From the NCBI GenBank assembly GCA_048213135.1, contig PS015055.1, forward strand, positions 26,823-81,589: 54,767 nucleotides of DNA. The letters run 5' to 3'. Position numbers and translations under genes: made by a program. The stretch's first letter is position 1. The number at the start of each line of letters is the position of its first letter. The notes under the pieces were generated by a model, which did not search any database, was not told the origin of the DNA, and worked only from the letters and a program-made list of their open reading frames with translations. Shown here piece by piece: positions 1,329 to 39,771 of the stretch. This DNA is from Reclinomonas americana ATCC 50394 (Eukaryota).

Positions 1329-2140
1329 TCACGACAGGCGATCGAGGTAGATGTGCATCACTGACTCTGTGATTTTCTGCTCAAACAAGTCGGTGGAGGC
1401 TCCCAATGCGATAACTTCCAGTTCGTATTTGCCCGGAATGTCATAGGCTTCCTTGAACACCTCGATCATCCGGTTCGTGTGGTCCGTGATCTTGATGAAA
1501 ATGACGTGGACGTTGAGTTCGTCACGAAGCCGACGAAGCTGCTCCTCCGGATTGCCGCATTCACAGCCACCAGGAAGTGAGTCGCCGAGCCCAGTGTGGT
1601 ACTGTGCGGAGGAGTAAGATGAGACTGTAACGACCGCAACACACTCTGCGGCATCGAATAAACACCCACCCGAGTTCCGTGGCACGGGCAATCTGCCACC
1701 AACACAAGGAACCGACAGTGTGACTTCGGACTCCACTCCAGCTCCAGAGCTTTCGCAAATCCACCGGCTACATCTTCTGGCGCATCACCACCGCCGCTGG
1801 CGGACTGACTGCCAATAAAGCGAGCAACAGTCGCGGCGTCTGTGGTCAACGGGGTGAACTGAATCCGCTGTGCCCCATCACAATGGTCACGATAGGCGAC
1901 GAATCCCACGCGAGGAGATGCCGTTCGACCAAAGTCTTCGGCAAAGCGACGGCTAAGGCCCGTGAGGATACCCTGAACGTGGTTCTTCGCCGCCGTGATC
2001 CACGCACCCATGGAACCCTGCAGAAATCGATTAAAAAAACAAAGCGTTAGTCTCATTGCAGAACTCAATCACAAACATTTAATAAACAACCGGACGAAGA
2101 CTCACCGTGCAGTCCATCACGAAGACCAAATCGAGCGACT
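1329..2140 (-). other. VWA/MIDAS domain 3, of the type found in VWA-alpha-kinases such as Dictyostelium VwkA
   Basis: LDLVFVMDCT|GSMGAWI...RVGFVAYRDHCD...ASGGGDAPEDVAGG...LEW...LVLVADCPCHGTR|YH...D..PGG. The DxTxS motif is split by the intron 2018-2105. Confidence 0.85.
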
Positions 2141-5100
2141 CAGTCATCTTACCGGCGCCTCCTTCCAAGTCCACGTGCACGAAGTTCGACAGCTCATTTT
2201 TCAAGTCATCGAGCACGAACATATTTGGCCGGTCTCGCATGTCATTCCACAGCTGCTCCACTGACTGTGATGATTCCGCACCACTCTGCAGCATCATGCG
2301 ATCGGCATCAGCCAGCTTGTATGCGTCGCCAGTGCCATCGCCAGCAGTCCAGCAGCGCACGCTCTGCGCCAGCACAGACGGCACGCAGCACATAAGCCAG
2401 TTCGGATACGTGGTTGCCAGCCCGGAGTCCGTCAAACCGACGCTGCAGGCGACGACAGTGACTCCAGCGTGTTCCGCTGCTTGCAACGACTTGAGCAGGG
2501 CCCCACTTGAGCTGCTGTAGCCATCCGTAAACACAAACATAAATGACTCTCCGCCAGCACCGACACTCGACGATTCCAAAGCTGCAGTTGCGTACTCCAC
2601 CGCGTCAGCCTGCGCATATTTACAGTTAAGTAACCACCGTCAGCTCGGAAACACGAAAGCAATACTGCTCTTCTCACGTCGAAGAAAACGCAACATCACA
2701 AGTCTGTCTGTCAACAGAATCTGCACCAGCACAGTGCATCCACTGATACATGGCTCGTGAGTCCCAAGCCTGCTCCTCCGACTTCACCCACTGGACCGTT
2801 TCGCCAAAGACGAAGAGATTGAAGTGCGGTATCTGCAACTGAGCCAAGGCCGCGACGAGGATGCTTGCCGCAACTGAACACTGCACGAGGAAAACAAAGA
2901 TTTGAGTGCACACTCCGATGCAGCGAAAATACATGCTCGGGTCTCTCTCACTTACCATTGATCCACTTTCACCCATCATCGATGACGATTTGTCGAGAAC
3001 AATCGCAATGCGATAGTTGCGTCGACCGCCGCCAGTGAGACGGGCGAATATCTTGCGGTACGAGAAGTCACTCAGCACAGCCCGAATAAGTGACGGCATA
3101 TGCAACGACGACCCAGTGAAATCCGGCCGCCGTCGAGTGTACTTGTTCACTGGCATCATCGTACCCTCCAGCACCTTGGCGAGCTCGTCAATTTCTGGGG
3201 CGTAGTTGCGAGAGAAGTCGGTGCACCATCGCTCAAAGGCGTGCTCGCACGCCACCTGACACCTCGGTTGCGTCAACACCGATGAGTAGTACTCCTTGAG
3301 AGCGCTGCGAGTCGCCGCGACATGTTCCTTCAGCAGCTGCTTCCTCTCCACCACGTGGTGTGCTCCGGCGGACGCATCAGCAACCATGAACACTGGTCCA
3401 ACAGAGGGTCTGCTGCAGCGGAACAACTCTTCCAACCGCAGTCCTCTTGGCTGCTGGAAAACGACTCGGCGCACTGGTGGCGCCTCCGTCACTCGCCGAC
3501 TGGCCGCATCAGATGGCAATCCGCACGGAGCATAAGTACTCAGCTTAACGCGACTCAGCGCCGGCATCGCCAGCAATCCGTGCGCATGCGCTGCCGCAGC
3601 AGAGTCGGGGCGTGGGAGTCCACGGAGAGTTGTGACCCACTTGGTGAACTGAGCGCCCATTAGACTGCCGAGAATGAGAGGCATCTTCTCTTGCTCCTGC
3701 CGAGTGATACTCTGCACGAACTCGCGACCGACGATGTTGGCCAGATCATTGCGAATGGCGATCTCCACATCACCAGGCACTTCCTTGTCCGAGATTTGCA
3801 CGATCAACAGTGACTTGTCCTTGTGGCTGTCAATAAGTTCTCGATAACGCTGGCTGTCTCGCTGTCCAGTGATGCCGTCCGTGATCATCATGACCGATCT
3901 GGACGTCAGAGCCAACAATGAGCAACCAATATGCTGAGAAGAAGAGTGACACAGATACATGAAATACATCAGCCGACTCACCGAAGTACGTGTGCGCCCT
4001 CAGAGCCAAACTTGAAGCCGTGCGTCAGAGCAAATTTGAGACCATCAAGTGGATGAGTGCCACGGTCGTTGAAGTCGATGGCTGTGAGAGGGAACTCCAG
4101 TTAGCAACTCGCGCACCTTTCATCGACAACTGCAACACACGTGCGAACCTTCAAGCAAGAACTCTCCAAGTTCCTCACTCATCTCCTTCTTGAGGTCCTT
4201 CAAAAGCTTCTGTGCGAAATGGACATCTTCCGATTCGCGAGCGCCGAAGCGCACCACGGCAAAGCGGCATTCTAGACGGCGAAGGGTCTCCATGAGAAGC
4301 ACCAAAGCGGTCTTAGCGTGCTCGCCTTTCGACCCACTCATCGACCACGAGGAGTCAACCATGAAGACGAACTCGTACTCCAAAATTGTATCTCCAGCCA
4401 GACGTTGCAGTTGATTCATCGAGCCACGAATACGTGCCGTGAGATCGCGCCGAAGCTCCACCATGCTCTTCAGGCGGCACAGTAACGCATATGTCGCAGT
4501 CTCCAACTTCGCATCTGCAGCCAACGAGAACCGATTGTGATCAATCGCACGGTACTGGCTGATGGCACCAACAGCGTCCTCAATTCGTTTCTCCATGAAC
4601 CCTGGCGGCAGCTTCTTGGTTTTCAGCTGCCTCAATGCCTCATCAGTCAGTTGCACACGGCCATGCTTTTTCAAAGGCCCACTATCGTCGTCATCTGCGA
4701 GGCCGTCACGCTCAGAGTCTTCACCTGAGTTGGTGGATATGCGAGTGCCCATCATAATGTCGTGCAGCATCGCAGCATGATGACCACTTGCGGCACCGCC
4801 GCCGCTGCCGGCGCCGCTGCCTGAACTGGGCGTTCCACCAGGTACCCGTCGTGCATTGGCGGATTTGCCAGCAGATCCTGCTGCCGCCGAGTCATCCAAA
4901 AACTTCAGCCCCAATCGTCTGTTCGTCAGCACTTCAACATTGCCATCCTCATCGTCTTCCTCAAGCAGGCGAACCACGTGGCGCATGTCCGTATCATCGC
5001 CGTCCGCATCAACTGCAGCGTGCGACGGGCTGAGCAGTTCGTCTTCAGGCATTGAAAGATTGCGCAGGAAATCTGCGAAAGTCGAGGACGATTCCAGCTG

Positions 5101-8100
5101 CTGCACAATAAGGTCGTCTTCTGCGCGCCGAGCTTCACGGACTGCGGCAAAGCGATCAGCAATCTGTTCGGCACGGTCGGTACCGTGTGACCTTGGCATG
5201 TCAAAGTCGTACAGCAGCGCTACTCCACCGTCTTTTGAAGACAGTTGCGCGCCAACCTGTCGCAACAGACGGCGCAGTGGACGTGGAAGCTTTCGAGAGG
5301 GAAGACGCTCGAGTACCGACACACAGTCGTTACGTTGCTGCACGGCCAGGCTTCGCAAACGTGGCAAAAGCGACGAATCCATGCTCGCTTCTGTAACGTG
5401 AAGCGATACAGCGATCTGGATTCCTAGCTGCAGGACCTCCACTGCGAGCGCCTGCGGACTTGGATCACCGTCGCCAAACGAAGCCTCCGTACAAGAAGAG
5501 CACAATCGACACGCCGCATCGAACATTGATCGCCAGTGTCGAATCGCAGTCTCCATCTCTACAACGATATGACCAGTGTCACGCGTGGAGAGTCGAGAAC
5601 GGCTTCCGTGATCTCCACCAACCAACTGCTGCCTGAATCGCTCGAGCAACTCACTCACCGCTGACAGTTGCATCCGGACAGTTGGAGCAACATCCTGCAC
5701 GGCGCGAGACAGATCGGCAATTCTCGATTCAACACCGTCTTCCATGTCAGCGCCAGGAGCCACATCAACCCTGTCCGACCCAATTGGCGGAGGCGGGCGG
5801 TTGCGCAGCATGTCTGCAACATCAAGTGGCTTGACGGCTTCGTTACTTGGGAACGAGATCCAACACGTTCCAGCGACATCGTCTGCTCCCTCAAGTGAGC
5901 TACTCGCGGCGGACACAAGAGAGGCAGGTTGCGCGGCAGCTGTGGCTCGAAGGCGCATCGAGTTATTCGACGGTCGCGACGGACCTGCAGCGGCAGACGC
6001 AGCGGCTGTAGCCGCCACTGCTGCGTACGAGTCTCCGCGCTTCGTCGACCTACTAGACGGTCCTTTTCGACCGCTGCTGCGTGCGGACGTCGGATGCTGG
6101 ACGCGAAGAGAGATTCTGGAAGATCGATCCTCCTCAGCTTGTCCATCTGACACTTCAGCATGCACATCGTCCGCATCGTCGCAATCATCTGGCACCGTCA
6201 GCACTCTCGGCAGGCACAACGCTAGCAGTTCCGTTGCCGTCCGCAGGGCGACAATGGATCGACTGCCACCCGCCAAGGTTGAGGCACTGACACAGCGCTG
6301 GAGGACGGTGAACAGGCGGCCCAAGTCAGGCGAGCTGCGGATGCCAGCAAGCAAACTGGTTGACGACCTTGGTTCGCACACAGTCAAGAACGACGCCAAT
6401 TCATCGTAGGCACGGCGCAAATTCGTCGAGCTTGTCGAGGACTGCGAGACAGCAGTGACGAGCACTTGTCTCAGTAGTGCAAGCAAACCATCGACACGTT
6501 CTTCAGTCTGCTTTTGCTCATCCGACACCGGCGACAGCTCGTCAGTGACAGCGACGAACACGTCAGTTGCCATTTGCAGCAGCTGTACACCAGTCACGCC
6601 ATCGTCTGCAACTGACAGACTGTCTGCAAACTTCTCCATGTGGCAAACAGAGGCAGCAAGCTTCCGAACACCGCGATACACTATGCCGGAAACAACGTCA
6701 GCAAATTCGACTGTTTGCAATTCACCAAGGCAGTCGCTTAGTGAACCAGTAGCGGCTACCGCAGCGACAGTCAGCAGCCTGGCAGCGGATGGCATATAAA
6801 CTGCGGATAATGCTGCAGAAAGTCGAGCAGTGCCGTAGCCCACTGCTCGATTGTTTCCGTGATTCCACGACGACAGCAGCTCGCGCAAAGGTCCACCAGG
6901 AATTGTCTCTACTACTGAACGACGCAAGAGGTCGATCCGCCAGAGGGAGGGGTCGTCGCAACCAGCGGTTCGATACAGACGAAGCACTTCCATTGAACGT
7001 TTACCAGCCGCCGATGAGGTGTCAACACCGCGCGAGCACATTACTTCGAATGCACCGCTGAGCACAGCCGACATTGACGCAAGACCACTTGCGTCACATT
7101 GCAACAACTCAGAAACCGACCGCGTTCGGCCAACGCCAGGTATACAGTCGACAAGCAACTGCATTGACGCAAGCAATCCATGCTCAGCGTGTACTGTGCG
7201 CAGTTGCTGCACGCTGAATCCCTCGAGCCCAGCAAACTCTGCGGCATCATTGACAAGGGCTGCGGCGCTTTCAGGCGACCATGTGCCAGCCGACATAGCG
7301 CTCACTCCGAGCGTCGCACATCTTGTCACCAGTGACGCCACCTCTGTTCCGCAAGCAGGTTCAAGCAGCTCAAGTCGCAACTCCTCCACAAATGTCATCA
7401 CTTTGTCGGCAAGGCCTCCGTCAGCCAGAGAACTGGCGACGGCTGCATGCACCCGGCCAAGAGCACCTTTCGCACGCGGATACATGGCAACAACTGCAGC
7501 CAGCTCGGTACACAGCGCAGTAGCAAGTGCAGTCAATGCGGCGCTATGAACACAGGCACTCAACAGCTGCTGAGCGCAAGTCGATGCAACAGCATCGATT
7601 TCCGTCGCGATACGGAGGCATTCCGAGACAGCTGTTTCAACAAACAGAAGTTCCCTGACCAGAGAATCTGATGAACCGGATACTAGGGACAAAGCGCGCA
7701 GAGCAATACGAGTCACAGCAGTCGGAAGAGCAGAAGCGTCCGACTCGGAAGTCAAGGCATGCAGAGTGGCACACAGCATCACATCGTCAGAGGTCGCCTC
7801 CAGTGCACCGATCACAACTTGCCGTACGTCGTCAGCCTCCAATAGATCACAGAACATCGTCCAAATGACGGGCGGCGAAAAATCCTCCACAGTTTCCACC
7901 ATTGGCGACAACGCACGTACCAACTGAATAGTCAACCACGGCGACGTGCAAATCGAAGAGGTGGCAAGCCTAGCAAACACTCTCTCAGAGCCATACAGTG
8001 TCTGTAACAGAGCAGCCAAATGATCGTTCGCTCTCGTGGTGTGGTAGACTCGATCGTCGACGAGGGGGACCAGCGTACGCCGACGGTCACTGCCGAGTGT

Positions 8101-11100
8101 GAACACCGAACTGACAAACAGACGAAGTGTGTCCACGTCGCGCCTGCACATCGTGGACCTGGTCGTCACTTCTTCGACCTGCCTGCGGCGCTCGATCTGA
8201 GTGCCCTTTTGAGTGCGCTCGAAAACTGCTGACGTACAATCCGTAAACCAGGCACACAAATCATCAACCGTCAACTCCGCGGTGCACCCAACATCAGCGG
8301 TTGCAGCCAAGCGGCGCAAACGAATGTTGTATTCGTCGCTGCCAAGCCCCCATGGCACAACACTCACTTGACCGTCAACATGGCCGTCAGTGCCTGCAAT
8401 GTCAAGCGCGACACGAATCAATGGCACGGCGGCCGGTGATTCACCGGACGCAGCTCGGCACATTGACTGAATCAAGGAAATGACGCTCTTTTGACGCAGG
8501 CTCAGGCCGGGAGCATCAGCGTCCACTGCATTGACAGCGGCCCAGCACAACTGCGCAGCTGGTGCGTCGGGAATAGTCGCAGCAGCAGCCAGAACTGCAC
8601 ATTGAACTCCAGTTGCGGGCACATCATCACTTGCGTTGTTGACAGCGGACACCACATTGGAGGCGGGTTGATCACACACCACGTGCTCGAGCACGCGAAC
8701 GACGTGGTCCTCACCAAGTTCCTGTGCAAGCCAGATCAGGCAGGCACGAGCCAACAAGCCACGAGCAACATCGTTGACAGTGAAGTCGCTGCCGACAGTA
8801 ACAGTGTCCAGTGGGCATCGGTGTAGTGCAGTCGCACCGAGAATCCGGAGCGCACACTGTAGAGCCGGTGCTGTCGCGATGCATGGCACACGACAGGCTC
8901 TCTCAACAGTCGTCGTCACTGACTGGAACATGCTGTCTGCCAACACCGCCGCCGAAGTAATTGTCGACCACAGAATTGTCGACGAGCCGGCTGCACTAGC
9001 GCCGGCAACCATTGTCGTGTCCACTCGCTCGTTCAGCATCCTACACCACAGGTGCTCGAAGGCACGTACAATACTCTTGCGATGCGTCTCGTAAGCCGAT
9101 GACCACGTGTGCAGCGAAACCAACAGCGCCGATGGCAACGCCGCAGTCGAAGGCAGCAGGTCAATCCACCACGACTGCATTGAACGTGGGACCCCAGACT
9201 CAGCCGCCATGTTCATCAGCGTCATCATGAACTGATGGAGTGGGGTTCCGGCAAGCACACCAAGACGTCCAACGCTCTCGCAAAACTCGCTCATTACAAC
9301 GCTGAGAGCCGTCGTTGCAGTTGGATTCGACGTACAGTCTCCAGCTCGGAGGACCTTTGCAATGCACGACAGCGATGCCGCACAGTACAGTTGGTACTCA
9401 GTTGGCGGTTCCTCTGGAAGCAAAGGAGCAGCGAGGGAACTGGCGAGCCCATCGATCACGACGTGGAGAGGCCGTCCAACTTCAGCACACAGTCGAAGGA
9501 GCTCTTCTCCGCTCTCAGTAACAAGTCCTGGAGCAAAGAGAGAAATAATTCGCAACAATTTTTGAGTGGGCGATGCAGACGTGAGAAGGTACACGCTCTC
9601 GATGCTTCGACTCCACTCCTGTACGTCTCCACGAGGCATCAACAAACGAATTACTGCGCCCACATCTGGCACGTTGCCAGACGCAAGGCTGCTTGCAATT
9701 TGCTCAACAACGTCTGCGTTCACCAGCACAAATTCCAGCGAGGTTTCAACAGTTACTTCCAATCCGTACAGTGAGGACACGAAGCGCTGCACTGCTCGCA
9801 ATTCGGCCTGTTCAAGGAAAAGCTGAGACTCAGATCCCACACCCGCCGTCAGTATGCGTCGAATGACATCAACCGTCTCACTCATGTCCGAAGTCAACGA
9901 TTGGAGCAACAAACCAACGCTTGGTTGTGCTGCTGCATCAACAGCAAACACTCTGAGAGCTTCCAGTGCCGACGCAGGGTCAGCCAGCAAGTGCACGAGC
10001 GCAGTGGAGAGATGCCCAGTAACTGTGGATAAACTGACGTCAGCAGGCCGGCCGTACAAGCTGGCAGTGGAATACAGCGGACCACAACGAATGACTGCGT
10101 CCCATGCACGCAGTCGACTGGCGTGCAATCGCAGAATATCGTTTGGAACAAACGACTGCAGCACAGTCTCCAGTCGGACTCCAAAGTCCAAAGTCGAAGA
10201 CGGTATCGAGCAGAAAACACTGGCAGTGTCCGAATTGTGCATCGCCCGCAACGCCAAGAACAATTGGACGCCCAACGCAACGTGCTCGGTGGTAGCAGCG
10301 TCAATGTTTGCAGTGTGAGCTCTCTGGATAGCCTCGATGAAGTCAAACATCGCGCTTCCCACAGTATGCGCCACCGAGAACGGCACTCCATTCACCGTCT
10401 GGACGAGTGAGCGCCAGCCACACAAAACGGCGATGCGCAACTTGTCTGCCATGGAAGCACCAGTCGAGTCGTCGTCTGCAAATGAGGACGACAGCTGTCG
10501 CAACACTGCCAAGAACGACGCGAGATAGCGGCTCTGCGAGGCTGAACTGCCGGACGACAACAGGACTGCCTCAAGTCGTTGCCACCACTTGAGATCGTCC
10601 GCAATGTTGCTGTGCCCAGGAAGCGACTGCCGCAGTTCCGAGGTCACAGAGGCAAGTCGTGTACTCCTCAAGCAGACGGATGCAGCCTTCCAGAGAGCAC
10701 TGTCTGTTGCCGATTGTGCCATGTGTGGTTCACGAGCCAGGCACAAGGAAGACAGAACATGCAGCGATTCCAACACGCTCACACATCGTTTTTGTCTCAA
10801 GGCTCGTTGCATGCATACGCGATCTGCTTGCCGAGAGAGTAGTACCAGCATCTCCGCCGCAGAGGCGACCGCTGGCATGTCACTCACTGCGGCAGCAGCA
10901 CTGTGGCGTGATTGGGAATCACTGCCACCAGCTGCGGCGCTCGCACCAACGTCGTTTACATCGGACCACTCCGTGAATGCAGCGTGTACTGAAGTCGACT
11001 TAACTTTCATCAGCGAGCACATATCAGCCACAGACTCAAGAACATCGTCACGACGGTGCGACTGAGACCAGCATGTGAGGATGTGAACGAGAGAATCTGC

Positions 11101-14100
11101 AGTCGAATTGCAGGAGTCTGGGGGAACGAGATACCAGTCCGCTGCACAGTGCTCAGCCACGAACGCCCGATTGATGTTCTCCTCCCGATCGGAGCTGTCA
11201 CACATCGCAAGAGTGATTGGTAGCGCACAGTTCACAGCCAGCATCGTGGGAAAACTGGAACTATCTGCGACAGTGCACAGTTGCCGCAGAAGAGGTCTGC
11301 TGCTTCCACGAGCAAAGCCAACGCCCGCAACGGTATCCATGAAACACTGCAAGAGTAATCTTGCGCCGTGTGCGTTCGTCATGAAAGCGTGACGGCTGCA
11401 GCTGTCTGCCGCAATCCAATCTTCGAGGAATGCAGAGGCGCGCCGCAAGAGTAGCTGCAATAGGCTACGCATCGAGTTGTTCCCTTGCGTTGCGATGCAC
11501 TTCAAGTCTGCGTGCAATCGGCGTAGTGACTCGACAGCTGTGTGACATGTGCTCTCAATCCTAGAGCGGCGAACATCGGCAGACAGCATTCCTTCATCCA
11601 GCTTGCTGTTGCCGTATTGCGCTTGCCGAAGCAGGCGCTCAGCCAAAGCACGATGTCCGTTGCGCAGTATGTCTTCCATGACCCGTTCGAACCTTTCACC
11701 CCGATTCAACGGCACCTGATCGACTTGCAGACCACACGCCTCGGCGAGCAGGACGCTCACTTGATCTTGCCAAGTCTCAGCGGTGCTCATGCGCAAGGCA
11801 ATTTCCACAAAGCGCAAAACGTGCGGTGGCGAATCCTGCAGCAGCAAGCGCAGCGAGTGTTCCGAAGTCGCAAGAACCTCCACGCCAGCAGACCGCAACT
11901 CGTCGACTGGTAATGCTGTGCGGTCTGCAAGTCCAGATGACAGCGACAGCACACTTGAGCAGAGGCTGGCCAACGTCGCACACGGAGAGATGCCGAGATC
12001 TGCAGACGCCAGCGTGACAAGTATGCTATCTGAGCCTCCTCGACGACCAGCACGATACAAAATTCCCACTTGTCCTGAACGAGCGCTCATTGCCGGTTGC
12101 CACTGGGCATCGTTGACCTGCACAGCATCCATGACCACATCGATAGACGCGAATCCCGCAAGCTGCTGTGCATGGACAACTCCCAAGTGCCGTCGGCGCG
12201 TACGCGCAACAAACGATTCACCCGCATGGTCGATCGGAAAGCGTGCCAGGTGAGTGGCCAAATTTCCAACAAAAAGCAACGTCGAGAATCGGGTTCCTTG
12301 CCACGATGTGCTGGAGAACACCGCACTTAGTGGCCAAACAACTTGCAGCGCACTGAGAACACTCCGCGTCACATTCTGGTGTGCCGCTCCTGGGAAACGA
12401 TCAAGAACCTTGACCAGAGCACTGCACACAGCGCCTTGCACACCTAGATTTTTGTCAACATCGGCGTTGCCGCTCGAGATTGCAAGTGTCACCACTTCAT
12501 CCGCCAGTTCCGAAAGGACCTCAACTAGTGAACGGCGTGATGCTCGCCACACAGCCAGCTCTGCTGCTGAAGTGTCCAATTTTTCGAGAGTGAGCAGCTC
12601 CTTAACCGCCAGATCAGCGTCGGGCGGCGTAGGCGCGGTGCGCACACGATCCAATGTATCTCTCACAGTGACGAAAACACGAAGAGAGCTGGCTGCTGCA
12701 TCTGCAAGAATTGAATCATGTCGACACAAGGCGGAAAGCAGCTGCAGTTGACCGCGAGCACTACTGGACGGGGTGTACGAGTCGTCGTCAATGTCAACCA
12801 AAGATTGCAGTAAATCGCGGAGCCCGGATACACACGTCGACAAAGCCGGCAGCACCAGCAGCGTCGACAGTTCGTGCCATCGATTCAATGAATCAAGAAG
12901 ATGGCTGCCACACACCGACGCGCATCGTATGTCGGCAATGACGCGTGTCAGAAGTGGCATAAGTGGTGCTCCCGCTGGTCCACATCGCAGCAAGCATGCC
13001 AGCGCAACTCGATACCACTGAACGCAACCGCCGTCACCACGGACCGAGGAAGCCTTCGTCTCACCAGATGCAACACACAACCAAAGGGCATGCAACAAAG
13101 CAGCCGTCCAGCTCGACGTCGATACTTCCGATTCGTGTGCAAACTCATCAATGTCAACTGCCAACAGCTCAACACAAAGAGTGCTGACAATCGATGAAAT
13201 GCTTGCCGCCGACAGCAAAGCACTTCGACCTGTCGACGATCCTGCTGCAGCAGACGACGCCTTCACGTTGGTGTCGATTCCAAGCTTTGCGGGCAGGGAC
13301 GCCAGCTGACGCCATCCGCGCTCGTCAATGCCAACATGTCCACCACCAGCCCCTTCACCGGCACTGGCAGTGGGCACCAAAAGTTGCAGCACAGTCCACG
13401 CGCGCTGCATCGCACTCATAAAGTTGGCATCGCAGCAGGCAGCCATAAACGAATCGAGCTCGCTGGTGAACAACTCTTGTGCCGAGCTTGCAGCGGTTGC
13501 ATCATGCTCCGCAACAACTGGAATAATGATGTCGGCGGCTTGTTTACAACGTGCAAGTCGGTCAGCTGGTGTCATGTAGCGCCATCCAGACGAACGCGCA
13601 ACCCAATCACGAAGTGCAGTGATCCTCTCTCGCACGTCAACACCAGTAATTGCCACCAGCTTCAATACGAGACGCGCCAGTGCCAACATATCGAAGGACA
13701 CGCCAATTACACTGCGAAGCGCAAACAGTTTCGCAGTATCAGCCAACCAGGTAAGCAACTGCGAGTTCTTCTGTGATCGCGGATCGCTCCCTCGAGCCAG
13801 TTCCTTGCCAAGAAGACGCAGAACCTGCTCGGGGTCACTGGAGTTCCGCGAAACGCACTCCATAAGTGCTCGGATGTAATACGGTTCATTGTCCGTGGGC
13901 GGCATTGGTGCAACGCCTGAAACAACGTGCAACAGAAGATTGTTCACAGTACGTTCAGCGACGGCTTCGAGCTGCGGCAGACTGAGAGGGGCAGCATCTC
14001 GGTCCACGAGATTGAGGACCTCGAGCAACGACGACCGCCTGAGAGCATCGCCCACCGTCGGAATCGCGACCAAAACCAAGTCACGTATCCGACCGAAGAG

Positions 14101-17100
14101 AGTTCCAGCAGGATTCAGACCATCGTCGTGGTCATTGTCCGCCTCATTGAAAACACTTGGAAGCACATCGCACAGAGTGGACCAAATAACATGTGGGTTC
14201 GTTCCGTCATCAAGGACAACGTTTGCGACAAAGCCGAGCAATGAAGTTGACTGATGGTCAACATCTCGGTCTGTCGAATTGCCGAACCTAGCTACACAAG
14301 CAAACGCTTCCTCAGCAGCTGCTGGGAGAACCGGCGAACCAACCAGCATATCAGCACAAGCCACCAAAGTCGGTCGCCACGCAGACCCGTGTCCATACGA
14401 TTCCTCATGAGCAGCGTCTACAGTTTGGGCTGCCATCAAATTGAGGTGCAGCAACAATTCAGCACCGCTACCTTCCGGAACGGTACTCATCACCGAATGT
14501 ACCATGAAATGTCGCAACGCAGTCAGACGAAGTCGCCACCAGCAAGAATCGACAATGGTGTGAACACCATCAACCCAAGTCTTGCGGGCTGCAGGATCAA
14601 ACTGCGTGGCAGCCTCACGAACTCGCGCACCAAGATCGTCACGACCCACAGTCCGTTGTATGAGCGACAACAGTGACCGGGAAGGAGGAGTCAATTGCTC
14701 GCGTGACACCAGTCGGTCGAGCTGGCGGGCAACTCTCTGAGGCAGTGAACATAATTCTTCCACCAAATCGGCCCCCTGACTTGTTGCACGCTCCCGCAAA
14801 CTGGCGACGACTTGTCGAGTCTCGCACGCCTGCCACTGCTCTGCAAGCGCAGTTGAGAGCCACGGGGCAAGCAAGTCAACCTGTTTCATCAATTCCTCAG
14901 CATATGCGAGCAGCGCTCCTTCTTTCTTGGCATTCAACGACCACAAGCCAAGCGTCATCTTCAGCACACCGGCGAGGCTGTCACGAATCTGAGCACGTGA
15001 TGTCGACAAGAAGATTGCCGAGCCAGTCAGCTCTCTACAGTCTGCATCCTCCATGGCGTCAATCCACGCATCACGGACAGCAGAAATAGTCCGAAGCACA
15101 GGCGACGGCGCGACTTGCATGCTCCAAGTTATTGGGTCTGTTGTCAAACACCCTGCGTCGTTCTTCATGCAAACCACAGCATCCGCATCGGCACTGAGCG
15201 CAGGGCACAGAGTCGACACTTGTTCAATCACCCAGGAGTGATGCTCTGCACAACAACGCCCAAAGACGTCGTTGGCGAGCCAGTAAAACACTTCATAACA
15301 GTCGCGGAAAGTGTATTTTAGTACGCCGCCTACTGGTTCAGGAGTGTCGTCCACCAACGACCGCAAGCCAGTAACACCAGCTTCAAACGTCGCAAGCAAG
15401 GCGCTGTACAGACGTCGGGACGACAGTTGTTGCAGATTCCTGACATCGGGTACGAGCAACAACTCAAGTGCAAGCAGAGCGGCTTGTGGAATTCTGTGTC
15501 GACCAAGACATGCACCTCCGATGGCAATTGCAGAGCGCAGAACGTCCTCAGCACAGTGCACACCATCGGCGAGTTGGGAGGCTGTTCTCATGCGACCTTC
15601 CAGCCTGGCACATTCCAACTCGTACTGCGATTCAGCAATTGTACCGTGAAGATGCTCGCGTGCTCGGTCGACTGCAGCAGTCAGCAAATCAATCCACGAC
15701 ACATCGGATGCAAGCATGTCCACAGCATCCGACAAACGGAACACTGCAGCACTCGGCGACGGACTTGATTCTGCTGATCGTGGAGAAGCCATGTTGTCGA
15801 GCACAGTGAACACCAGTCGAACAGAGTTGGAAAAAGCAGTGACAGGTGCCTCGCCAACTTCTGGGCTGTTGAACTTGTTTCTTGGAAGTTGTCCATCACA
15901 CGACAACTGTGCCACGTTCTCCAACACTGCCAGCAGTCGCGACTGCGCAACAAGCGCGTCAAAGAGTACACAAATCTTCTCGGACGGGTTCGCGAGACGA
16001 TCCCGATCGGCAGACGGTACCACTCTGCCTGTGATACGAACAACAAGCGGTGGCGCCTTGTCGACAACAATAGCTCCGAGGCCGACACCGCCGTCTGCTG
16101 AAAACGAAAGTACTCGTTCGTTCGTTCCAATCATCAACCGCTTCACAAACGGTCCATCAGACAGAGAGCTAAGATTAACAGTTCCCTGAATCATAAACTC
16201 CTGCCCGGGTCGAATTGGATGGGACGATTCCAGACGGGTCAAATGCACTGACACTCCGTCCGGAGGACTGATAATCCAATTCAACAAAGCATTTCCGCGA
16301 TTGCACAGCATAACCGTGAACTGCGCACCCGCCGTGCTCTCGCGCGTCACGTCACCCAGATTGATCGACGCCCGCTCGACGACGGCAAGTGGGTTTCCAA
16401 CACTGCACTTGAGTCGCTTCGTACACATCACACTTGTTATTGGACAGAGGGCAGTAACGTCCGTGTCGAAGGTTTCGTGTGACGAAGTCGGGATCCAAGA
16501 TACGCCAACTTGGACTGGCTGGTATTCATACGATCGACCTCCAACTCGTTGCGGCGGTAGCAACGCAGAAGTGGAGTGAAGCAGAAGGCGTGAATCTGTC
16601 GATGAGAGCGACACAGTTGTCGGCATCGATCCACGGTTCATCAGTGTCACGGTGCTAGTTGCTGCAGGCAATGACCATGGCCCATTTCCGGTCAATGTGA
16701 CCAAGTTCAACTGCAGAGAATCGCTGCCGTCAGAGTAGAAAGCGACGACTGGGCGACCGGAGCGGAACGTCAGTGGAAGGACCCAACGACGATAGCCGTT
16801 TGCCACTGAGACAGTCAAATTACAGTTCATAACAGTGACTGCTGTGTCAGACACGTGTCTGCGCAACGCTGTGACAGTCAATGTTCGGTCGCAATTGGGA
16901 GCAAGCTGACCTCCGAGAACATCAACGGACATATCCACCTCTGTCGACATGCGCGCGTCAATCACCGGTCGTACATCGGCAGTAAATTCAAATGGAATGA
17001 TGCCCGTGTTGCGCAGAACGAGCTGCAGTGTGCTCGGCTGGCCGCTCAACACCGTTTCGGCAACAAGGGACTGACTGTCTGTCACCACTTGCTCACCCAG

Positions 17101-20100
17101 TCGGAGCTCGCACCGCGGAACTGCCACAGTCGCATTCAGCGCAATGTTGAAGAATTTGTTCTCGTTCATGAACACTTGCAGCAAGCCTTTGTGCACTGCC
17201 TGTTGCAACCCAGAACACCTGAACCCAACCGCAACGTCAGTCGTAGTTCGTGGCCTCAACACGAGCTGTTCATCGCCTGGAAGGAAAAACGCGCCGACAC
17301 TGCCAGTCCCATCAACACCGCGTGCGCCGAGTCGAAGCTTGATCAACACAGGAACGTCAGTGGTGTTGGCCACCTTCACTGCCCGTCGAACCTCCGCACC
17401 GGTCACAGAAGCGTGTCCAAAGTCCAACTCTTGTGTGTCAAACAGCAATTGCAACGATTGCACGTTCGCCTTCACCACAATGGAGATGGTGGACAGGCGG
17501 CCGTCACTCTCGAGCACAAGGTCATACGCGGTTGAATGCAGACCAGGAACGGGAGCCACAGATTCGACGACAAGGTCAGTGTGACTGCTCGGTCCAAGAT
17601 AGCCAGCTGCTGGTCCCACAGCGATGGGAGAATCACCAACGTCCACGTCGCCTTCGCCGTCGCGGCGTCTGACCACAGAGTATCGGATACCCGCGCGGAC
17701 GGAGGCGTTCTCGACCTTGATTACACGACGTGAAATTGCCGGCTGTTCGCACAAGCGCGTATCCAAGTCAATCATCAAATTGTTTCGGCTGCACACGAGT
17801 TCGCCTCGATCCGAGATGTCGATTTGCAGAGACTCGGCGGAGTGCATAGCAGCAACGAACTGGTCCATCAATACTTCGTCGGGGGGAAGAACACCAGACG
17901 CCAGCGCCATTGTCTCAAATGCTGAACTGGCATGTTTTCCACCATCTAGTTGCTGCGTGACACCGTCCAGAAGCTTGTCTGATTCCGCAACAATGCTGCT
18001 CGCTCGTGATTGCTCGAGGAGAAGGGCGCGCGATTGATTATTCACAGCTGACCGCTGGAATACAGTGGTGCGAGCAAAAAGGAGCTTGGGAGTCTCTGTA
18101 GTAGACCGCGAATCTGGACGCCAAGAGTTCACAGTCGCCAGATCCATGTCAGACCGTACCTCAACGCATGCACGACGGTACAACAGCGCCAACAGCAGAT
18201 CCAAGTCGACATAGAGTCGCAGTAGTCGCGGAGCAAGGGTCAGCAGCACTTCGGAGGTGCAGTGTACAGCTTGTTTCATGTCCGCCGTACCCAATTGCGA
18301 AACTCTGAGACTCTTGTTGTAGTCGGTGACACGCTCAAATAGTTGTAACTGTCCTCCAACAGTTACCATACTGCGATACTGGTCGGCAAGCATGCCAACT
18401 CTGGTGAGTAGCTGCTCGGCCAGAGCTGGCCACTCGCGCAGCGTGCGTTCAATTAGTTCAGCACTGCGACCGTTGAGGCCATCAGACAAACCCTGATACA
18501 CAGTGTTGAACAGGTTAACAGCTTCGGCAGTGGTCGAGCGACAATCGCGCATCCACTGATGCAGCGGCCAGTTGCCGTACTCTTTCCTGTCCTCTTCCCG
18601 TGCTCTGGCCGAAGACGTTTCGGGGTCTTCGCGAGTTTCCTCACGGGGCCGATCAAGTTGTGGTCGCGGACCAAGGTCCTTAGTCAAGGTAACAAGCTCT
18701 TTCACCGCCTCCTTCACCGTCTGCACTGTTGCGTGGATTGTACTGATATCGAAAGCCATGCTTTCGTCCTCAGCGGCTGGAGATGGCGTCTGGCGAACTG
18801 CAGCAAGCACCGTCATCCATACAGCCGCTATTGGGAAATCGTCACAGTCATCGCCGCGAGGTAACGGAATTTCCATGCGACGATTGGCATAGCGCGGATC
18901 TCGCTGCTTCCAGTGCCGTACAAAATCGGTCAGTGGATGCGACAGAACCACACTTCGAGTGCCAACAGTAAACGTGAACTGCACGGATGCCGTACGGAAG
19001 TCGCCAACTTGAGGACGCACAAGCTTGTAATTGTTGGCATTCCCACCAATGATTCGCCACCCCTTGTCACGCGCACTCCATTCAATGACCAACTCGGGTC
19101 CCACTCTCACAACCTCAGCATCAGATGAGCCGGGTTTCACAGAGATTTGGAGATAAACCGTAGACGAAGTGTGTGCAGGCGCATATGCCGCGCTCGCACG
19201 AAAAGACAACTGGCTCAGTAAGACGGACTCCACAAACTCGAAATTCAACTGCACAGTCTCCGCTGGTCCCATCCACCGTGCAATTTTCTCGTCGCACGAT
19301 TTCACGTACGTGTCAAGCTCGACAGCAAATTTTTCGAGCACACGGTTGTCTCGCTGAGGCTGCAGAAGCCAGTGTACGATGCTGGAGCCTGCTGTTGACA
19401 GCAGCAGCACCCGCTGGCGGATGGCGTGGCAGCGCTCGTCATACCGTTGAGTTTTTTGCCGGTATTCTGCTTCAGCCTCCTCCGCTTTACGTCTGAACAA
19501 GTTCATAAAGTCGTCCCACCGCTTCTTCAACCAACTCCGTGCAGCTTCAAAGCGCTTGTCCAACACGATCTCTACACCATCGGACCACGATCGCCAGGCT
19601 GCGTCAACAGAGTCAACACACTGCCGTATTTCAGATCGATCCGAGAGCAGCGCAAGAGACTCGGTCGACAATGTGCGCAGCATATCTGTCAAGAATGAGT
19701 GCTGCGTCGCCGTCACACGGTGGCGGAAACCGTCAATGTCGCGAAGCAGTTGCGAGACCCGTCCAAGATCAGCAGTGAATTCTCTTTCGGCCTCTACAGC
19801 TGACAGCAACATGAGCTCCCGCCCACGTTCGACCAAACGGCCGAGGTCATCCAAGAGTGCAGCTGCTTGCGGATTGGCAACACTGTGCGGTACAAGAACC
19901 TGCGTGTATCCTGCCACAGCTCGTCCAACATGACCACATGCGTCTGCCACAGCCAGTGCCACAGTGCTTGGAGTAGCAATTGCAGATCGCAGTTCGTCGG
20001 TGGTCAACACGGAATAATCTGGAACCTCATCGGCGAGGCCACCGCTGATGTGCATCACAAACTCACGTCGATCTTCCAACTCATACAACTTGATCACATC

Positions 20101-23100
20101 TGTGCGCACCGTGCGCGCTGCAGCATCTACCGTGTCACGAACTCTGGTCCGAGGCATCAGCTTGGTGTATACAGCGAACTCGACGCTGTAAAAGTTGGCC
20201 ACCGCTGAAACGAAGTCACAGAAGAACTCCCTGCACGCGAGCTGCAGAACCGTCACTGCTTCGGTTGAGTTTCGTCGCAGACGCTGTACTTCTGCCACAA
20301 GTGACAACATTTGCTGCATAAGCCCGTCAAGGCGACCGTCTCGAGCGAAAACACATAGCGCATCTCGCACAAAGTACCGCAGTCGTTCAGAAATGACACC
20401 AGTGTGATATGACGCCACAATCTCAGAAGACGGAAGCGCTGTCCGACGTATCAAGCCACTGAATCCCTCGAGAACAGGAAGAAGAGCCCTTTTCTCGTCC
20501 ACCGTTGCGTCATGTTGTTGACAGACAGAACGCGCAACTGATGACAGGCTGAGAGCCAACACACTCGCAGAATACGCGGGCTGCAGGAACAAGCTCTCCA
20601 AGGTGTGCGCACCGAGTCTTGCGTCAAGAAGAAGCACAGATGGCGACTGATGACACTGGAACAACCAGAAGTAAACACTGCGCTGCAGCGTTGTACCCAA
20701 GCCGTCAATTGTTATGCGCGATTGCTCCAGCTCGTGAACAAGTTTCGGCGCCTCCATGCCAAACACATTGGTCATGGAAAACGGTGATTCAGACGCAATG
20801 TCGAGTGCGGCACACTGTGACTTCAAGCTTGCGGTAAACGCAGACAACTCTGGAAGTGGCGAGCGGCACCATTGCTGCAGCAGCCGTGACATCACCAGAG
20901 ACAGTCGACGGACACAAAGTCGGAGCATTTGCACTGTGCTGCTGAGGAACGGCAAGTCGTTTGCAGTGGGACTGTCGACAACATGTTGCAACGCCACACA
21001 CCGCGCCCACTGCTGCATAGCCTCCTCTGCAGACAGCACAGGTGTAGCGTCACTGTCAGTCAGCGACTGCCCGATCTGTCGAACCAAAAGGCGAATGCTG
21101 GAACCCATGTCTCGCAAAGCAGGGGCGCGCTCCACAGCCAGATCACAATCTTCCTTTTGCGCAATAAGCCTGCGCACACAGTGCAACAGAGCGCTAAATG
21201 TCTCTTCCAGTGCGGAACGGCCAAGCTCAACACAAGCCAAAAGTCTGCGCACTCCGATTGCGATACCGTCTACATCCTGCAACAGGACCGCGAGAATCTG
21301 CGACACATCTCGTGCGGCGTCAGCAAATGCCGTGGACTGGAAAGCGGCAATTGTCTTGCCAAGCACATTCGCGCTACGTTGCAAGTCGTCCACAGACGGC
21401 CCCAGTCGACACGAAACACACCCAATCACTCTCTCAGCAGCAACTGCCGGCAACAAACGAACAGTTTGCATCTCACTGCGCTCAACGTCATCATCTTCGG
21501 CGACACACGATCCAGCGTACAGGTTGTCCTCCATCGGGCTGACAGCAAGGGCCATAAGTCGATCCATGCACTGAGCCAATTTGGAGCACATGTCCTGCTG
21601 CTGCTCAAGGCGTGCCTGAGCAAGCTCACCGCGTACACCGTCAATTTGAGCCTCAAAGTTCGCCTTGCTGACCAACGCTCGCTTTCTCTCTTCACGAGCG
21701 GGGCCGAGGTAGAGGCGCTGATACTCTTGAATCTGCGAAGACAGAGCCTCGAGCTGTTGAACAGCGCGTTCACTCCGCCCTCGCGTTACAGCGCCTGTTT
21801 CCGTCTCGAGTCGAAGGCGTTCAAATGCCTCGTTATCCATCTGTACGTGGCGTTCATAACGCGCAACCTCGGCATCGTGACGTCGAACAATGTGCTCACA
21901 GGCAGTCAACTGACTCTCCAAGTCAGCCAACCGTTGCATCAGTCTCTCCACGCGCTGCGTCGGGGCGAGCGATGCTTTGCTGAAGGCCAGCAGATCGTGA
22001 TTGCGAAGAGCACCTCGCATGCGCTCCCACATCATGCGAGCCGCATGGACCAGCATGTGCGAGGAGAAGACACTCAACGGCAAAAGATCCGACACATGTG
22101 CACTTGGCGTGAGTAGCAATGCAGCAGATTCTCGATCAGCAGCAACATTGCGTACTCGATCAACAAATTCCGTACTCTGTCCCACAAGCTCATTGCTGAC
22201 ATCGCGAAGCACACTGCGCCAACCGCCGTCATTATGGTCAAAGATGCCTACTCGACGGCTGCTGGTACCGACATTTGGCACACCGACACACAAGCTGGAG
22301 AACAGCGCACCCAGTGAACCCGGTGGCAGACGATCAGATGTTGCGTCGAGAGCAGTCGCCGCAGCACTTGCCGTCACCATCGATGAGTTGGTGAACAAGT
22401 CAACTAACAGACACTCTTGGTGATGTAGTTGCATCAATGTTACCGTGTCTTCCGGTATCAGCAGCATCGCTACATCGCGCCAGTGCAGCACCGACGGGAC
22501 AAGCAACGATTCGTCAGTTTTGTTGAGGATCTGTCCAGATGTGAACACACTCTGGCGACGTCTGCAAACATCGTAAAGATGGACGAGTCGCGGAAGCGGC
22601 AAGGCAGCATAGCCGGCCGGCAGTTCGTCATCGTCACCATTGGAAACACCAAGTTGATCCACCACAGCAGACATGTCGCCAGTAACGGAGCGCAATGACA
22701 GGTGTGACAACAATGGGATTGTAGAACGACTGGGAGACACAAGGGAGTCGACCAGAGGGCGGTGGAATGTTTGTAGCAACTCCAGCAGGCAGTTCAGCAG
22801 ATGGCCGTCAGTGACAGGTGAGTCAAGTGCGCGCGTAAAGCGCTGCGACACATCCAGAGAGTGCCGAGATGTCACCATCGCACGTAGGTGCCTCGCGTCT
22901 TCAGCAATAATCGACTGCCCTCTCGCAACAGTGAACGCAGCCATCCACAATTGCTGAATGTACGACTCAGACTCAGCTTGTTGCATCCACAGAGCAACAG
23001 CATCGCTTGACGGGATCTTGATGTTGACAGTTGTCTCGAGATGTTCAACGTAGTGGAGGAGCACCTCACGGTCCGCCCTTGTAGCGTTGCTGTCACCAAA

Positions 23101-37912: not shown

Positions 37913-38722
37913 CTGCGTGAATGACGGAGAAAGGATTAGAGGAAGGGGAGGAGAAAGAACAGAGAGAGAGTGAGAGAGAGGGGGGGAGGGCGTGAGGAGG
38001 AAAGACATATAATCCTTGTGCAAGTGCTTCTGCAAGTGATACCTAACATGTGATTGAGCGATAGTTAGAAGAACATGAAATGCAGCAAAGAAAAATGTCA
38101 CCACGAACGTCAAAATAAAAGGATTTGTTCGACGACGATTGCAGAAAGGGGAGGAAAAGAAAGGGAATCAGGTAAAAAGCGGAGAAGAGGGGGAGGCAAA
38201 GACAACAACTGACCAAGATGAATGTGCTACCACATCGGGAGTTAGAGACTTTCGCGTGATAGAAAGAAAGAGACACACAGAGTGGCGACAACAGGAAGAG
38301 AGATAAGGGGGAGAAGAGGAGGAAGGAAGAGAGGTAGAGAAACAGACAGGCAGGCAGAAGAGAGACAGTGAAATAAGAATCAAGGCGATATATGATATGC
38401 TGACACACACGCACGCGCGCACACATACAAAGAGAGAGAGATAGCGAGATAGAAAAGATAACTGGAAAAAATGAACATAAATGCAACGCACATAAGAGAT
38501 ATTACTGAGAGGAATGCCGACAATCGCAGCAAGTGGTACGGGAAAGAGAGAGATAGTTCAAGAGAGGAAGGGGGGGAAAGAGAGGGGAGACTGTATGTGT
38601 GTGACAGAAAGAGAAGAGAGACAGAGACAGAGACAGAGCCAGAGAGAGAGAGAGATGTGAGACAGAGACACGGAGAGAGAGAGAGATGCGAAAGAGATAG
38701 AGAGAGAGAGAGAGAACATAAC

Positions 38723-39771
<1,049 letters not shown>

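Follow-up and report, generated by a model that had tools for sequence, protein, structure and literature searches.

Three tandem VWA domains at the C-terminus of a giant AAA+ protein of Reclinomonas americana, a probable paralogue of midasin

Introduction

The window analysed here, a stretch of 54,767 nucleotides from Reclinomonas americana ATCC 50394 (contig PS015055.1, positions 26,823 to 81,589 of the forward strand), carries on its minus strand a coding region that ends in three VWA domains, and the question raised by this locus is what kind of protein bears them and whether the last of the three was added to a midasin by domain shuffling, as the original prediction had proposed. Midasin is, to our knowledge, the sole well-studied eukaryotic six-AAA+ ring that pulls proteins off an assembly via a MIDAS domain. 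The reading favoured in this analysis, which is considered probable, is that positions 4380-1329 code for the C-terminal ligand-binding module of a gene of ~11,955 aa, a midasin paralogue with an ordered triple-VWA tail that belongs to an unnamed, conserved family.

Gene structure and domain architecture

The whole gene occupies 1329..37817 on the minus strand and consists of nine exons with a CDS of 35,868 nt coding for 11,955 aa, the putative start being the first in-frame ATG. It was assembled from a 9428-aa ORF and ORFs upstream of it. The first five exons lie at 37817-33501, 33425-32356, 32275-4149, 4081-3982 and 3898-2956 and the last four at 2880-2695, 2609-2106, 2017-1670 and 1601-1329, with the stop at 1331-1329, and the joined CDS is a single open frame with no internal stop and no N. 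The six C-terminal introns (4148-4082, 3981-3899, 2955-2881, 2694-2610, 2105-2018 and 1669-1602) are all GT..AG and 67-88 nt long. Positions 4380-1332 of the minus strand hold all three VWA domains within a single reading frame over seven exons, and 4380-1329 amounts to the final ~860 residues of a protein of roughly 12,000. Runs of N and many microsatellites are also present in the window.

The 2694 donor (GTTGCG) is a weak one, preferred because it reproduces the T.DADA motif and the spacing of the triple-VWA family described below. Three other donors for this fourth intron were tried and rejected: 2715 makes the loop seven residues shorter, 2788 breaks the frame, and 2677 (GTGAGA) lacks an in-phase acceptor. 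The spliced model is collinear with the database protein P0001 right up to the C-terminal residues, at 38% identity and E 1e-115, and the alignment has no gaps at any of the four junctions that it covers. Exon 2609-2106, which like exon 2017-1670 is exactly as the original prediction had drawn it, codes for the end of VWA2, the short linker, and the first strand of VWA3 together with the 'DCT' of its metal loop; the border between VWA2 and VWA3 sits within this exon, and exon borders do not match domain borders. VWA3 cannot be an independent gene, because the exon in which VWA2 ends also encodes the first strand of VWA3 and one half of the VWA3 metal loop. VWA1, VWA2 and the VWA3 tail are one reading frame and one gene.

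The encoded protein begins with an N-terminal region of ~880 aa. Next come six AAA_5 modules in tandem (dynein/midasin/MoxR class; approximately 26700..35400, minus strand) and then a linker that is ~8,000 aa long and contains ASH-type Ig repeats. The VWA tail closes the protein: VWA1 is joined to VWA2 by a helical linker with a pre-MIDAS segment, and VWA2 to VWA3 by a short one. PF07728 was matched by three ORF pieces (E 3.3e-47, 8.2e-32 and 1.4e-12, in 2+1+4 stretches), AAA_lid_7 (PF17867) was matched too, and the AAA region contains six P-loop sites, with a canonical Walker A motif in AAA1, 2, 3 and 5 and a degenerate one in AAA4 and AAA6. The ASH/HYDIN-type Ig-like repeats lie in mid-protein at 16000..17730 on the minus strand (ORF residues ~4890-5460), where all matches are sub-threshold; the homologous stretch in relatives is above threshold, and these repeats are a feature of the triple-VWA family and a weak lead to its function. 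The 420 aa ahead of VWA1 contain 15% D+E and no long D/E-rich region.

Metal sites of the three VWA domains

VWA1 lies at 3655..4380 on the minus strand (residues ~11,095-11,286), interrupted by introns 4148-4082 and 3981-3899, and its motifs can be read from the sequence: DSSWS occupies 4356-4342, the T falls in exon 4081-3982, which is 100 nt long, and exon 3898-2956 supplies TDG. The helical inter-VWA linker (3025..3654, minus strand) ends in a midasin-type pre-MIDAS segment at about 3159-3013 (...PVNKYTRRRPDFTGSSLHMPSLIRAVLSDFSYRKIF...). It leads into VWA2, the counterpart of the midasin MIDAS domain (2265..3024, minus strand; introns 2955-2881 and 2694-2610), which has DKSSS at 2994-2980, T.DADA across the 2695/2609 junction with the T directly ahead of the 2694 donor, and TDGY in exon 2609-2106. 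VWA3, of the VWA_4 class (1332..2141, minus strand; introns 2105-2018 and 1669-1602), has a metal loop divided by intron 2105-2018 into DCT (2114-2106) and GS (2017-2012), followed by YRDHCD, GGGDAPED and ADCPCHG; its loop is DxTxS, and the D of GGGD occupies the classical T position. Thus the series DxSxS (VWA1 and VWA2) or DxTxS (VWA3), T (D in VWA3) and D has the expected spacing in all three domains.

In a family alignment of 28 rows with ~25-32% overall identity, each of the 16 predicted metal-site positions is invariant or T/S. The predicted metal-site (MIDAS) residues are accordingly intact and strongly conserved in all three VWAs, and both the three tandem, non-identical domains at the C-terminus and the intact DxS/TxS motif of each, which had been noticed earlier, are borne out, the former at the places first given on the minus strand and the latter by direct reading and by its invariance in the 28 rows.

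Because introns split the domains, the exons of the window fall below the Pfam gathering cut-offs when taken singly: the VWA matches reach 17.4 and 22.4 bits against 23.8, and exon 2017-1670 alone, which holds part of a domain spread over three exons, reaches 17.0 bits for VWA_4 (PF25106) against 27. The VWA_4 domain of relatives exceeds the 27-bit cut-off (P0001, 45.2; P0039, 48.1; P0032, 39.3 bits), and VWA1 of relatives matches PF00092/PF13519 above cut-off. Searches of the PDB with phmmer gave no match at E<=1 for the VWA3 exon and only chance-level matches to proline dehydrogenase for the N-terminal piece of VWA1. The clusters returned by a Protein Atlas search were generic VWA clusters with scores <=0.89, to be taken as leads only.

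Two classes of VWA domain in one tail

Profile comparisons separate the three domains clearly. With hhalign, V2 matched the midasin MIDAS domain at 99.0% (E 5e-18, 172 columns) and V1 matched V2 at 99.1%, against 6.9% for V2 with V3 and 2.7% for V3 with MIDAS. The V2 HMM matches three of three midasins; the V3 HMM matches all 25 of the VWA_4 proteins and none of the three midasins. A domain tree, obtained by a quick search with SH-aLRT support only, three midasins and no generic VWA outgroup, divides {V1, V2, MIDAS} from {V3 + other VWA_4 domains} with SH-aLRT 100 and joins V2 with midasin MIDAS at a support of 99, while V1 and V3 are not single clades in it (2 and 3 changes). Against the PDB, the profile of the pre-MIDAS segment plus VWA2 had midasin as its top match (6or5_A, E 1.8e-31), the linker matched midasin 6qt8_A (E 0.027) with the pre-MIDAS segment aligned, and VWA1 also matched midasin MIDAS. 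The entry 8ql1, labelled NDE1 among the PDB matches, is the human MDN1-MIDAS/NLE1 entry.

An AlphaFold model was made of the relative P0067, not of the window's protein (pLDDT 83.2), and its pTM of 0.44 makes it uninformative on the packing of the three domains. In this model the pre-MIDAS equivalent plus VWA2 superposes on Rea1/MDN1 MIDAS-UBL complexes (Z 21.6-22.2), VWA3 on integrin beta I-like domains (Z 19-21, rmsd 2.2-2.6, ~190 residues) and VWA1 on alpha I domains (Z ~17.7). The integrin domains share the principle of metal-dependent ligand binding, and the likeness is at the level of the fold only, with 14-19% identity; integrins are moreover receptors, whereas the window's protein is a predicted intracellular giant ATPase.

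Profiles and tree indicate that VWA2 is a homologue of the midasin MIDAS domain, preceding segment included, that VWA1 is a more distant MIDAS-like VWA, and that VWA3 is of a separate VWA_4 class, unrelated to MIDAS and common to VWA-alpha-kinase and TROVE/Ro60-type proteins. The hhalign values and the SH-aLRT of 100 thus uphold the view that these domains are of different VWA classes and not recent duplicates of one MIDAS.

The affinities of VWA3 are broader than its signature first suggested. VWA-alpha-kinase proteins carrying VWA_4, which we take to be vwkA-type, do share it: DCTGSMG, YRDHCDG, GGGDxPED and DxPCHG are common to VWA3 and the alpha-kinase-fused P0009, which carries YRDHCDG, GGGDAPED and ADSPCHG, and the V3 HMM matches the alpha-kinase-type P0009 (E 7e-51) and P0014 (E 2e-47). 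The claim that this signature is typical of alpha-kinase fusions stands insofar as it occurs in P0009, but fusions of the other kind are commoner: among 26 relatives of the VWA3 exon, TROVE and vWA_Ro60 were found in nine and alpha-kinase in two. In the domain tree TROVE/Ro60-type VWAs share a deep clade with V3, and the V3 domains of the family are mixed among VWA_4 domains of several architectures and not placed specifically with the alpha-kinase ones. The window's protein differs from both sets of relatives in lacking the alpha-kinase domain of the one and the TROVE ring of the other, and no RNA-binding module was detected in it. Alpha_kinase (PF02816) matched no piece of the gene and none of the 10 ORFs that overlap the stop or lie beyond it downstream; these ORFs, within 1-1380, had no Pfam match at E<=0.01, the sequence left downstream being 1328 nt. 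The protein ends ~100 aa past the DxPCHG motif, at the same end as its relatives, and the remark that no kinase follows VWA3 is correct for this stretch. A scan of metagenome loci with P0001 recovered a single locus, L001, in which VWA3 alone was matched; P0001's own contig was not among the results.

A conserved family of giant triple-VWA proteins

The arrangement seen in the window recurs widely. Counted with HMMs built from 27 of the counted proteins, the order V1-V2-V3 is present in 63 of 148 representatives and V2-V3 in 43, and among proteins over 3000 aa it is V1-V2-V3 in 17 of 18. A single HSP covers V1 to V3 in 33 of 184 proteins, and HSPs between the tail and its relatives extend over ~800-990 aa at 27-32% identity. 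The likeness is not restricted to the tail, for the AAA region matches P0044, P0049 and P0066 over about 1000-1170 aa (E 1e-113 to 1e-135). Members of the family have been found in a choanoflagellate (Monosiga, for example XP_001742639.1), rotifers (Adineta, Brachionus, Rotaria), green algae (Bryopsis, for example GMH42204.1, and Mesostigma), a cryptophyte (Rhodomonas), a chlorarachniophyte (Chlorarachnion) and a syndinian (Amoebophrya), and in the transcriptome-derived relatives P0049 (MMETSP) and P0041 (Trinity assembly) V1-V2-V3 lies within one ORF. These comparisons indicate that the ordered VWA1-VWA2-VWA3 tail is the hallmark of a conserved, unnamed eukaryotic family. No description of it was found in full-text searches of the openly available literature, and passages of PMC3495828, PMC11573180 and PMC7159879 likewise hold nothing on it.

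Relationship to midasin

Midasin (Rea1/Mdn1/MDN1) has the same six AAA_5 modules, a midasin-type lid and a long linker, and VWA2 has the same full MIDAS motif with the characteristic segment ahead of it, V2 and MIDAS forming a clade. The differences are equally plain. The window's protein is about 12,000 aa long against about 5,000-7,800 for midasin; it has three VWAs, the MIDAS counterpart being VWA2 with VWA3 after it, where midasin has one, with MIDAS C-terminal; it carries ASH-type Ig repeats in the linker, unlike midasin, and lacks midasin's long D/E-rich region. Beyond single AAA modules, ring and linker could not be aligned to the three midasins compared: a stretch of 867 aa comprising AAA5, AAA6 and sequence beyond aligned over 770-860 aa to P0044, P0049, P0057, P0066 and P0106, and over only 170-245 aa to the midasins. 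A word-indexed search with the AAA region found three giants only, all of them canonical midasins.

These comparisons bear directly on whether the protein might be the organism's true midasin orthologue, acting in 60S ribosome biogenesis, much expanded and with two extra VWAs. Six AAA_5 modules with AAA_lid_7, midasins as the best matches among solved structures, and V2 as sister to MIDAS would all fit such a protein, but the extended alignments of ring and linker are with the triple-VWA family only, and the three canonical midasins each end in a single MIDAS domain followed by a conserved C-terminal helix. An ordinary midasin is also present in species that have the triple-VWA family, Monosiga for example, which counts further against this explanation, and it is regarded as unlikely. 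The initial identification of the host as midasin is accordingly not retained, the ring and linker being collinear with the triple-VWA family and the MIDAS counterpart not being C-terminal.

It is harder still to credit that a midasin acquired VWA3 (and VWA1) at its C-terminus from a VWA-alpha-kinase gene, through domain shuffling confined to this lineage. The class of VWA3, other than that of MIDAS, the signature that it has in common with the alpha-kinase-fused P0009, and the midasin pre-MIDAS segment ahead of VWA2 are what such an event would leave, yet the border between VWA2 and VWA3 is without an intron, the tree does not place the family's V3 specifically with alpha-kinase VWA_4 domains, and TROVE predominates over alpha-kinase as the fusion partner (9 against 2 among the 26 matches). 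Above all, relatives in no fewer than five eukaryotic supergroups show the order V1-V2-V3, which makes the fusion ancient; since the triple arrangement is conserved across several supergroups, any shuffling of VWA3 was ancient and not lineage-specific, and a recent acquisition is contradicted. The N runs and microsatellites of the window might raise the suspicion that VWA3 forms a gene of its own downstream, or that the tail is an artefact of assembly or gene model, but the CDS is free of N, the exon that completes VWA2 carries the start of VWA3 as far as 'DCT', and the model is collinear through all junctions with P0001 and about 30 other proteins, so that the chance of this is very small indeed. 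The protein is thus best read as a triple-VWA paralogue of midasin.

Proposed function and wider significance

Pairing of AAA+ and VWA modules is not confined to eukaryotes, MoxR-class AAA+ proteins being partnered by a VWA co-factor according to PMC7159879 and PMC3495828. The window's protein has the same pairing as the prokaryotic MoxR pairs, and differs from them in fusing six AAA modules and three VWAs in one giant chain. By analogy with work on Rea1/Mdn1 and on integrins, each VWA would hold a divalent cation, with an acidic side chain of the ligand completing its coordination, and the AAA ring would use ATP hydrolysis to pull on whatever is bound by the heads. From metal-dependent gripping by the VWAs together with the ATP-driven pull of the ring, we infer that the protein may be an ATP-driven remodeller or extractor whose three ligand-gripping heads could seize as many as three ligands, or else a single multivalent assembly. 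A ciliary or centrosomal target is hinted at by the ASH repeats and by the presence of a flagellated or ciliated stage in the life cycle of every named carrier; the Ro60-type VWA3 hints instead at RNP assemblies.

More tentatively, the family could stand alongside dynein and midasin as a further, undescribed lineage of giant mechanoenzymes with six AAA+ modules, one that dates to the last eukaryotic common ancestor, a possibility on which we would not yet insist. Its defining features would be the ASH/HYDIN-type Ig repeats and a three-MIDAS head composed of two MIDAS-like VWAs and one VWA_4, and it appears to have been retained by flagellated protists, green algae and rotifers. The commonly used model organisms are not known to have a member, and this would account for the family being unstudied. 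This would be a second machine of the midasin type, more than twice as long, with three conserved, predicted metal-dependent heads drawn from two unrelated VWA classes and present in several supergroups. If the family is truly uncharacterised, separately expressible domains, invariant aspartates and tractable choanoflagellates and green algae offer a testable entry to it. The eukaryotic VWA8 has about 1,900 aa and a single VWA, against about 12,000 aa and three VWAs in the window's protein. For annotation, such genes should not be named 'midasin', nor should their intron-rich 3' end be taken for separate VWA genes; one cluster of the family bears the IMG label 'MoxR-like ATPase/YegL'.

Gene model and C-terminal domains

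The giant gene is read on the minus strand from an open frame of 9428 aa (32406-4120) and two frames upstream of it (38042-33453 and 33452-32160), and joining these at canonical GT..AG boundaries gives nine exons and a coding sequence of 35,868 nt, or 11,955 codons, within which there is no internal stop or N. The modelled start codon is the first in-frame ATG, and the 5' end is putative. Pfam places AAA_5 (dynein-related) domains in all three ORF pieces, in 2+1+4 stretches (E 8.2e-32, 1.4e-12 and 3.3e-47), together with the midasin AAA lid. There are six P-loop sites, four canonical and two degenerate; on the minus strand, the Walker A motif looks degenerate in AAA4 (GPTGLKS, ~31647) and AAA6 (GDTCSLKT, ~28100), and GK[ST] is retained in AAA1, 2, 3 and 5. 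The introns have a strong 3' bias, with six of the eight modelled falling in the last 2.8 kb of the 36.5-kb gene (37817-1329), and a single exon measures 28.1 kb.

Reading of the minus strand over 4500-1250 reveals six short introns (67-88 nt, GT..AG throughout), which separate an exon ending at 4149 from those at 4081-3982, 3898-2956, 2880-2695, 2609-2106, 2017-1670 and 1601-1332, the last followed by the stop codon of the giant gene at 1331-1329. VWA1 (4380-3655) carries DSSWS, a T within the 100-nt exon, and TDG. VWA2 (3024-2265), with the segment ...RRRPDFTGSSLHMPSLIRAVLSDFSYRKIF... ahead of it, carries DKSSS, a T.DADA motif laid over the 2695|2609 junction, and TDGY; VWA3 (2141-1332) carries DCT|GS, YRDHCD, GGGDAPED and ADCPCHG. 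The original prediction of three VWA domains at the C-terminus was thus right as an observation, the motifs being legible in 4380-1332 of the minus strand, and the two exons it named, 2609-2106 and 2017-1670, match the exon model exactly. Scored singly, the window exons remain under the Pfam cut-offs for VWA domains because two introns cut each domain.

It had been proposed that the prediction would fail if VWA3 were an independent gene, an alternative that the exon structure rules out. Exon 2609-2106 codes for the C-terminal half of VWA2, the linker after it and the opening strand of VWA3 with the 'DCT' of its metal loop, which the following intron splits as DCT|GS; since the end of VWA2 and the start of VWA3 share this exon, VWA3 cannot begin a gene of its own. 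The spliced model aligns with the database relative P0001 (539 aa) at 208/547 identical positions (E 1e-115), gap-free at the four junctions spanned and reaching the last residues of both proteins. The donor at 2694 (GTTGCG) is weak and restores the family-wide T.DADA motif and the family loop length; alternative donors at 2715, 2788 and 2677 all fail against it. Two transcript-derived relatives, P0049 (an MMETSP record) and P0041 (a Trinity contig), hold all three VWA domains in a single ORF. Judged on sequence and comparison, the VWA1-VWA2-VWA3 tail belongs to one gene.

A family of giant proteins related to midasin

A full HMMER scan with P0001 recovered 6542 proteins at E<=1e-3, of which 140 reach E<=1e-30, and among the best 150 matches are many giants of 4,370-7,408 aa aligned across VWA2 and VWA3 in one stretch. 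The window protein is collinear with these family giants at both ends, its AAA region matching at E 1e-113 to 1e-135 across at least 1000 aa and its tail in single HSPs of ~800-990 aa at 27-32% identity; one HSP covers VWA1 to VWA3 in 33 of 184 proteins compared. In a count over 148 representatives, which is partly circular because the three domain HMMs derive from 27 of the counted proteins, the order is V1-V2-V3 in 63, V2-V3 in 43 (many of them fragments), V3 in 15, V2 in 12, V1-V2 in 7 and further combinations in 8. The full order occurs in 17 of 18 proteins longer than 3000 aa, and the eighteenth ends within VWA2. Members from Monosiga brevicollis, Adineta, Brachionus, Rotaria, Bryopsis, Mesostigma, Rhodomonas, Chlorarachnion and Amoebophrya are all labelled 'hypothetical', 'unnamed' or 'VWFA domain-containing'; the family proteins are public yet unnamed, and a literature search of openly available full texts found no paper on the triple-VWA giants. 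Some relatives vary in domain make-up: P0193 (4224-4392) and P0055 (2880-3042) have a fourth VWA domain C-terminal to VWA3, P0036 joins a VWA2-VWA3 pair to an N-terminal RING finger, and P0050 is grouped with these.

The only giants returned by a word-index search with the AAA region were three canonical midasins, each of which, unlike the window protein, has at its end a single MIDAS domain with a conserved terminal helix. The 867-aa stretch from AAA5 on aligns across 770-860 aa to five family clusters; with the three midasins the alignment extends no further than 170-245 aa. By these alignments the window protein is probably not midasin proper, and it is read as a putative midasin-type AAA+/MIDAS remodeller.

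Origin of the three VWA domains

Profile-profile comparison links V2 with MIDAS (99.0%, E 5e-18, 172 columns), V1 with V2 (99.1%) and V1 with MIDAS (98.5%); for V3 the values are 96.4% with V1, 6.9% with V2 and 2.7% with MIDAS. The V3 HMM matches 25/25 VWA_4-type proteins and 0/3 midasins, which are matched 3/3 by the V2 HMM and 1/3 by that of V1. In a quick IQ-TREE analysis of 71 domains, {V1, V2, MIDAS} is split from {V3 and other VWA_4} with SH-aLRT support of 100, V2 forms one clade (98) and groups with MIDAS (99), and V1 and V3 are not recovered as single clades. Against the PDB, the whole-module profile finds midasin first (6or5_A, E 1.8e-31) across the pre-MIDAS segment and VWA2; its VWA1 part also matches the MIDAS domain including the terminal helix, and its VWA3 part the VWAs of CLCA1, collagen VI, ITIH and CMG2. 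The AlphaFold model of the relative P0067 (mean pLDDT 83.2, pTM 0.44) resolves three alpha/beta domains with confidence. Its VWA2 with preceding helices superposes on Rea1-MIDAS/Ytm1 (Z 22.2), Rea1-MIDAS/Rsa4 (22.1) and MDN1-MIDAS/NLE1 (21.6), VWA3 on integrin beta I-like domains (Z about 20-21), and VWA1 on Rea1 MIDAS (18.2) and integrin alpha I domains (about 17.7). Together these comparisons exclude recent duplication and place VWA3 in a different class, upholding the view that the three domains are non-identical.

The VWA3 signature had been called typical of alpha-kinase fusions. The same motifs are indeed found in one such fusion, P0009, but among 26 relatives of the VWA3 exon TROVE/Ro60 proteins are commoner (9 against 2 with an alpha-kinase), and 18 carry PF25106 (VWA_4). 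Acquisition of VWA3 by a local shuffling event is not supported, as the V1-V2-V3 combination is ancient, a conserved family hallmark, and there is no intron at the VWA2/VWA3 border.

Metal sites and proposed mechanism

An alignment of 28 family members shows no variation beyond T/S at any of the 16 positions predicted to coordinate metal: D, S, S, T/S and D in VWA1 and again in VWA2, and in VWA3 D, T and S plus the acidic residues of GGxDxPE (D and E) and DxPxHG (D). Such retention at an overall identity of only about 25-32% argues that all three heads are probably functional. On the minus strand, the VWA3 metal site is flanked by His/Cys pairs (YRDHCD and CPCHG, at 1890-1875 and 1693-1675). 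P0001, P0004 and the alpha-kinase-fused P0009 share these pairs, most family members lack them, and they may form an extra metal site.

In midasin, the MIDAS domain uses its metal ion to bind a ubiquitin-like domain on an assembly factor, and the AAA ring powers removal of the bound factor; the titles of PDB entries superposed on the P0067 model (Ytm1, Rsa4, NLE1) fit this pairing. One plausible mechanism, drawn by analogy, is that up to three metal-dependent VWA heads would hold ligands, keeping hold while the AAA ring pulls. Passages in two papers describe MoxR-class AAA+ proteins as generally partnered with a VWA protein (PMC7159879, PMC3495828).

Within the linker (minus strand, ~17730-16000; ORF residues ~4890-5460) lie four or five Ig-like repeats similar to ASH/HYDIN/CFAP65/Cep192 domains; their Pfam matches in the window all fall below threshold. 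In the relatives P0100 and P0199 the aligned stretch (E 1e-14 and 1e-15) is next to above-threshold Cep192_D3/HYDIN Ig matches, and PF22544 occurs in 8 of 23 long relatives. The repeats hint, speculatively, at a ciliary or centrosomal setting.

Surrounding DNA

A plus-strand ORF of Cys-rich repeats (...CSGHGTC...; 48418-49284), containing a short N run and without a Pfam match at E<=0.001, lies directly upstream of a 594-aa BNR/Asp-box repeat ORF (49463-51247, plus strand; Sortilin-Vps10 E 4e-22, BNR E 4e-14). The giant gene is flanked by low-complexity DNA rich in (CT/GA)n and (CA)n microsatellites (1-760, ~38050-39400, ~43250-44200) and by assembly gaps, with N runs near 40980-41640, 42120-42790 and 53400-54000; in gap-containing segments GC goes down to about 0.34-0.36.
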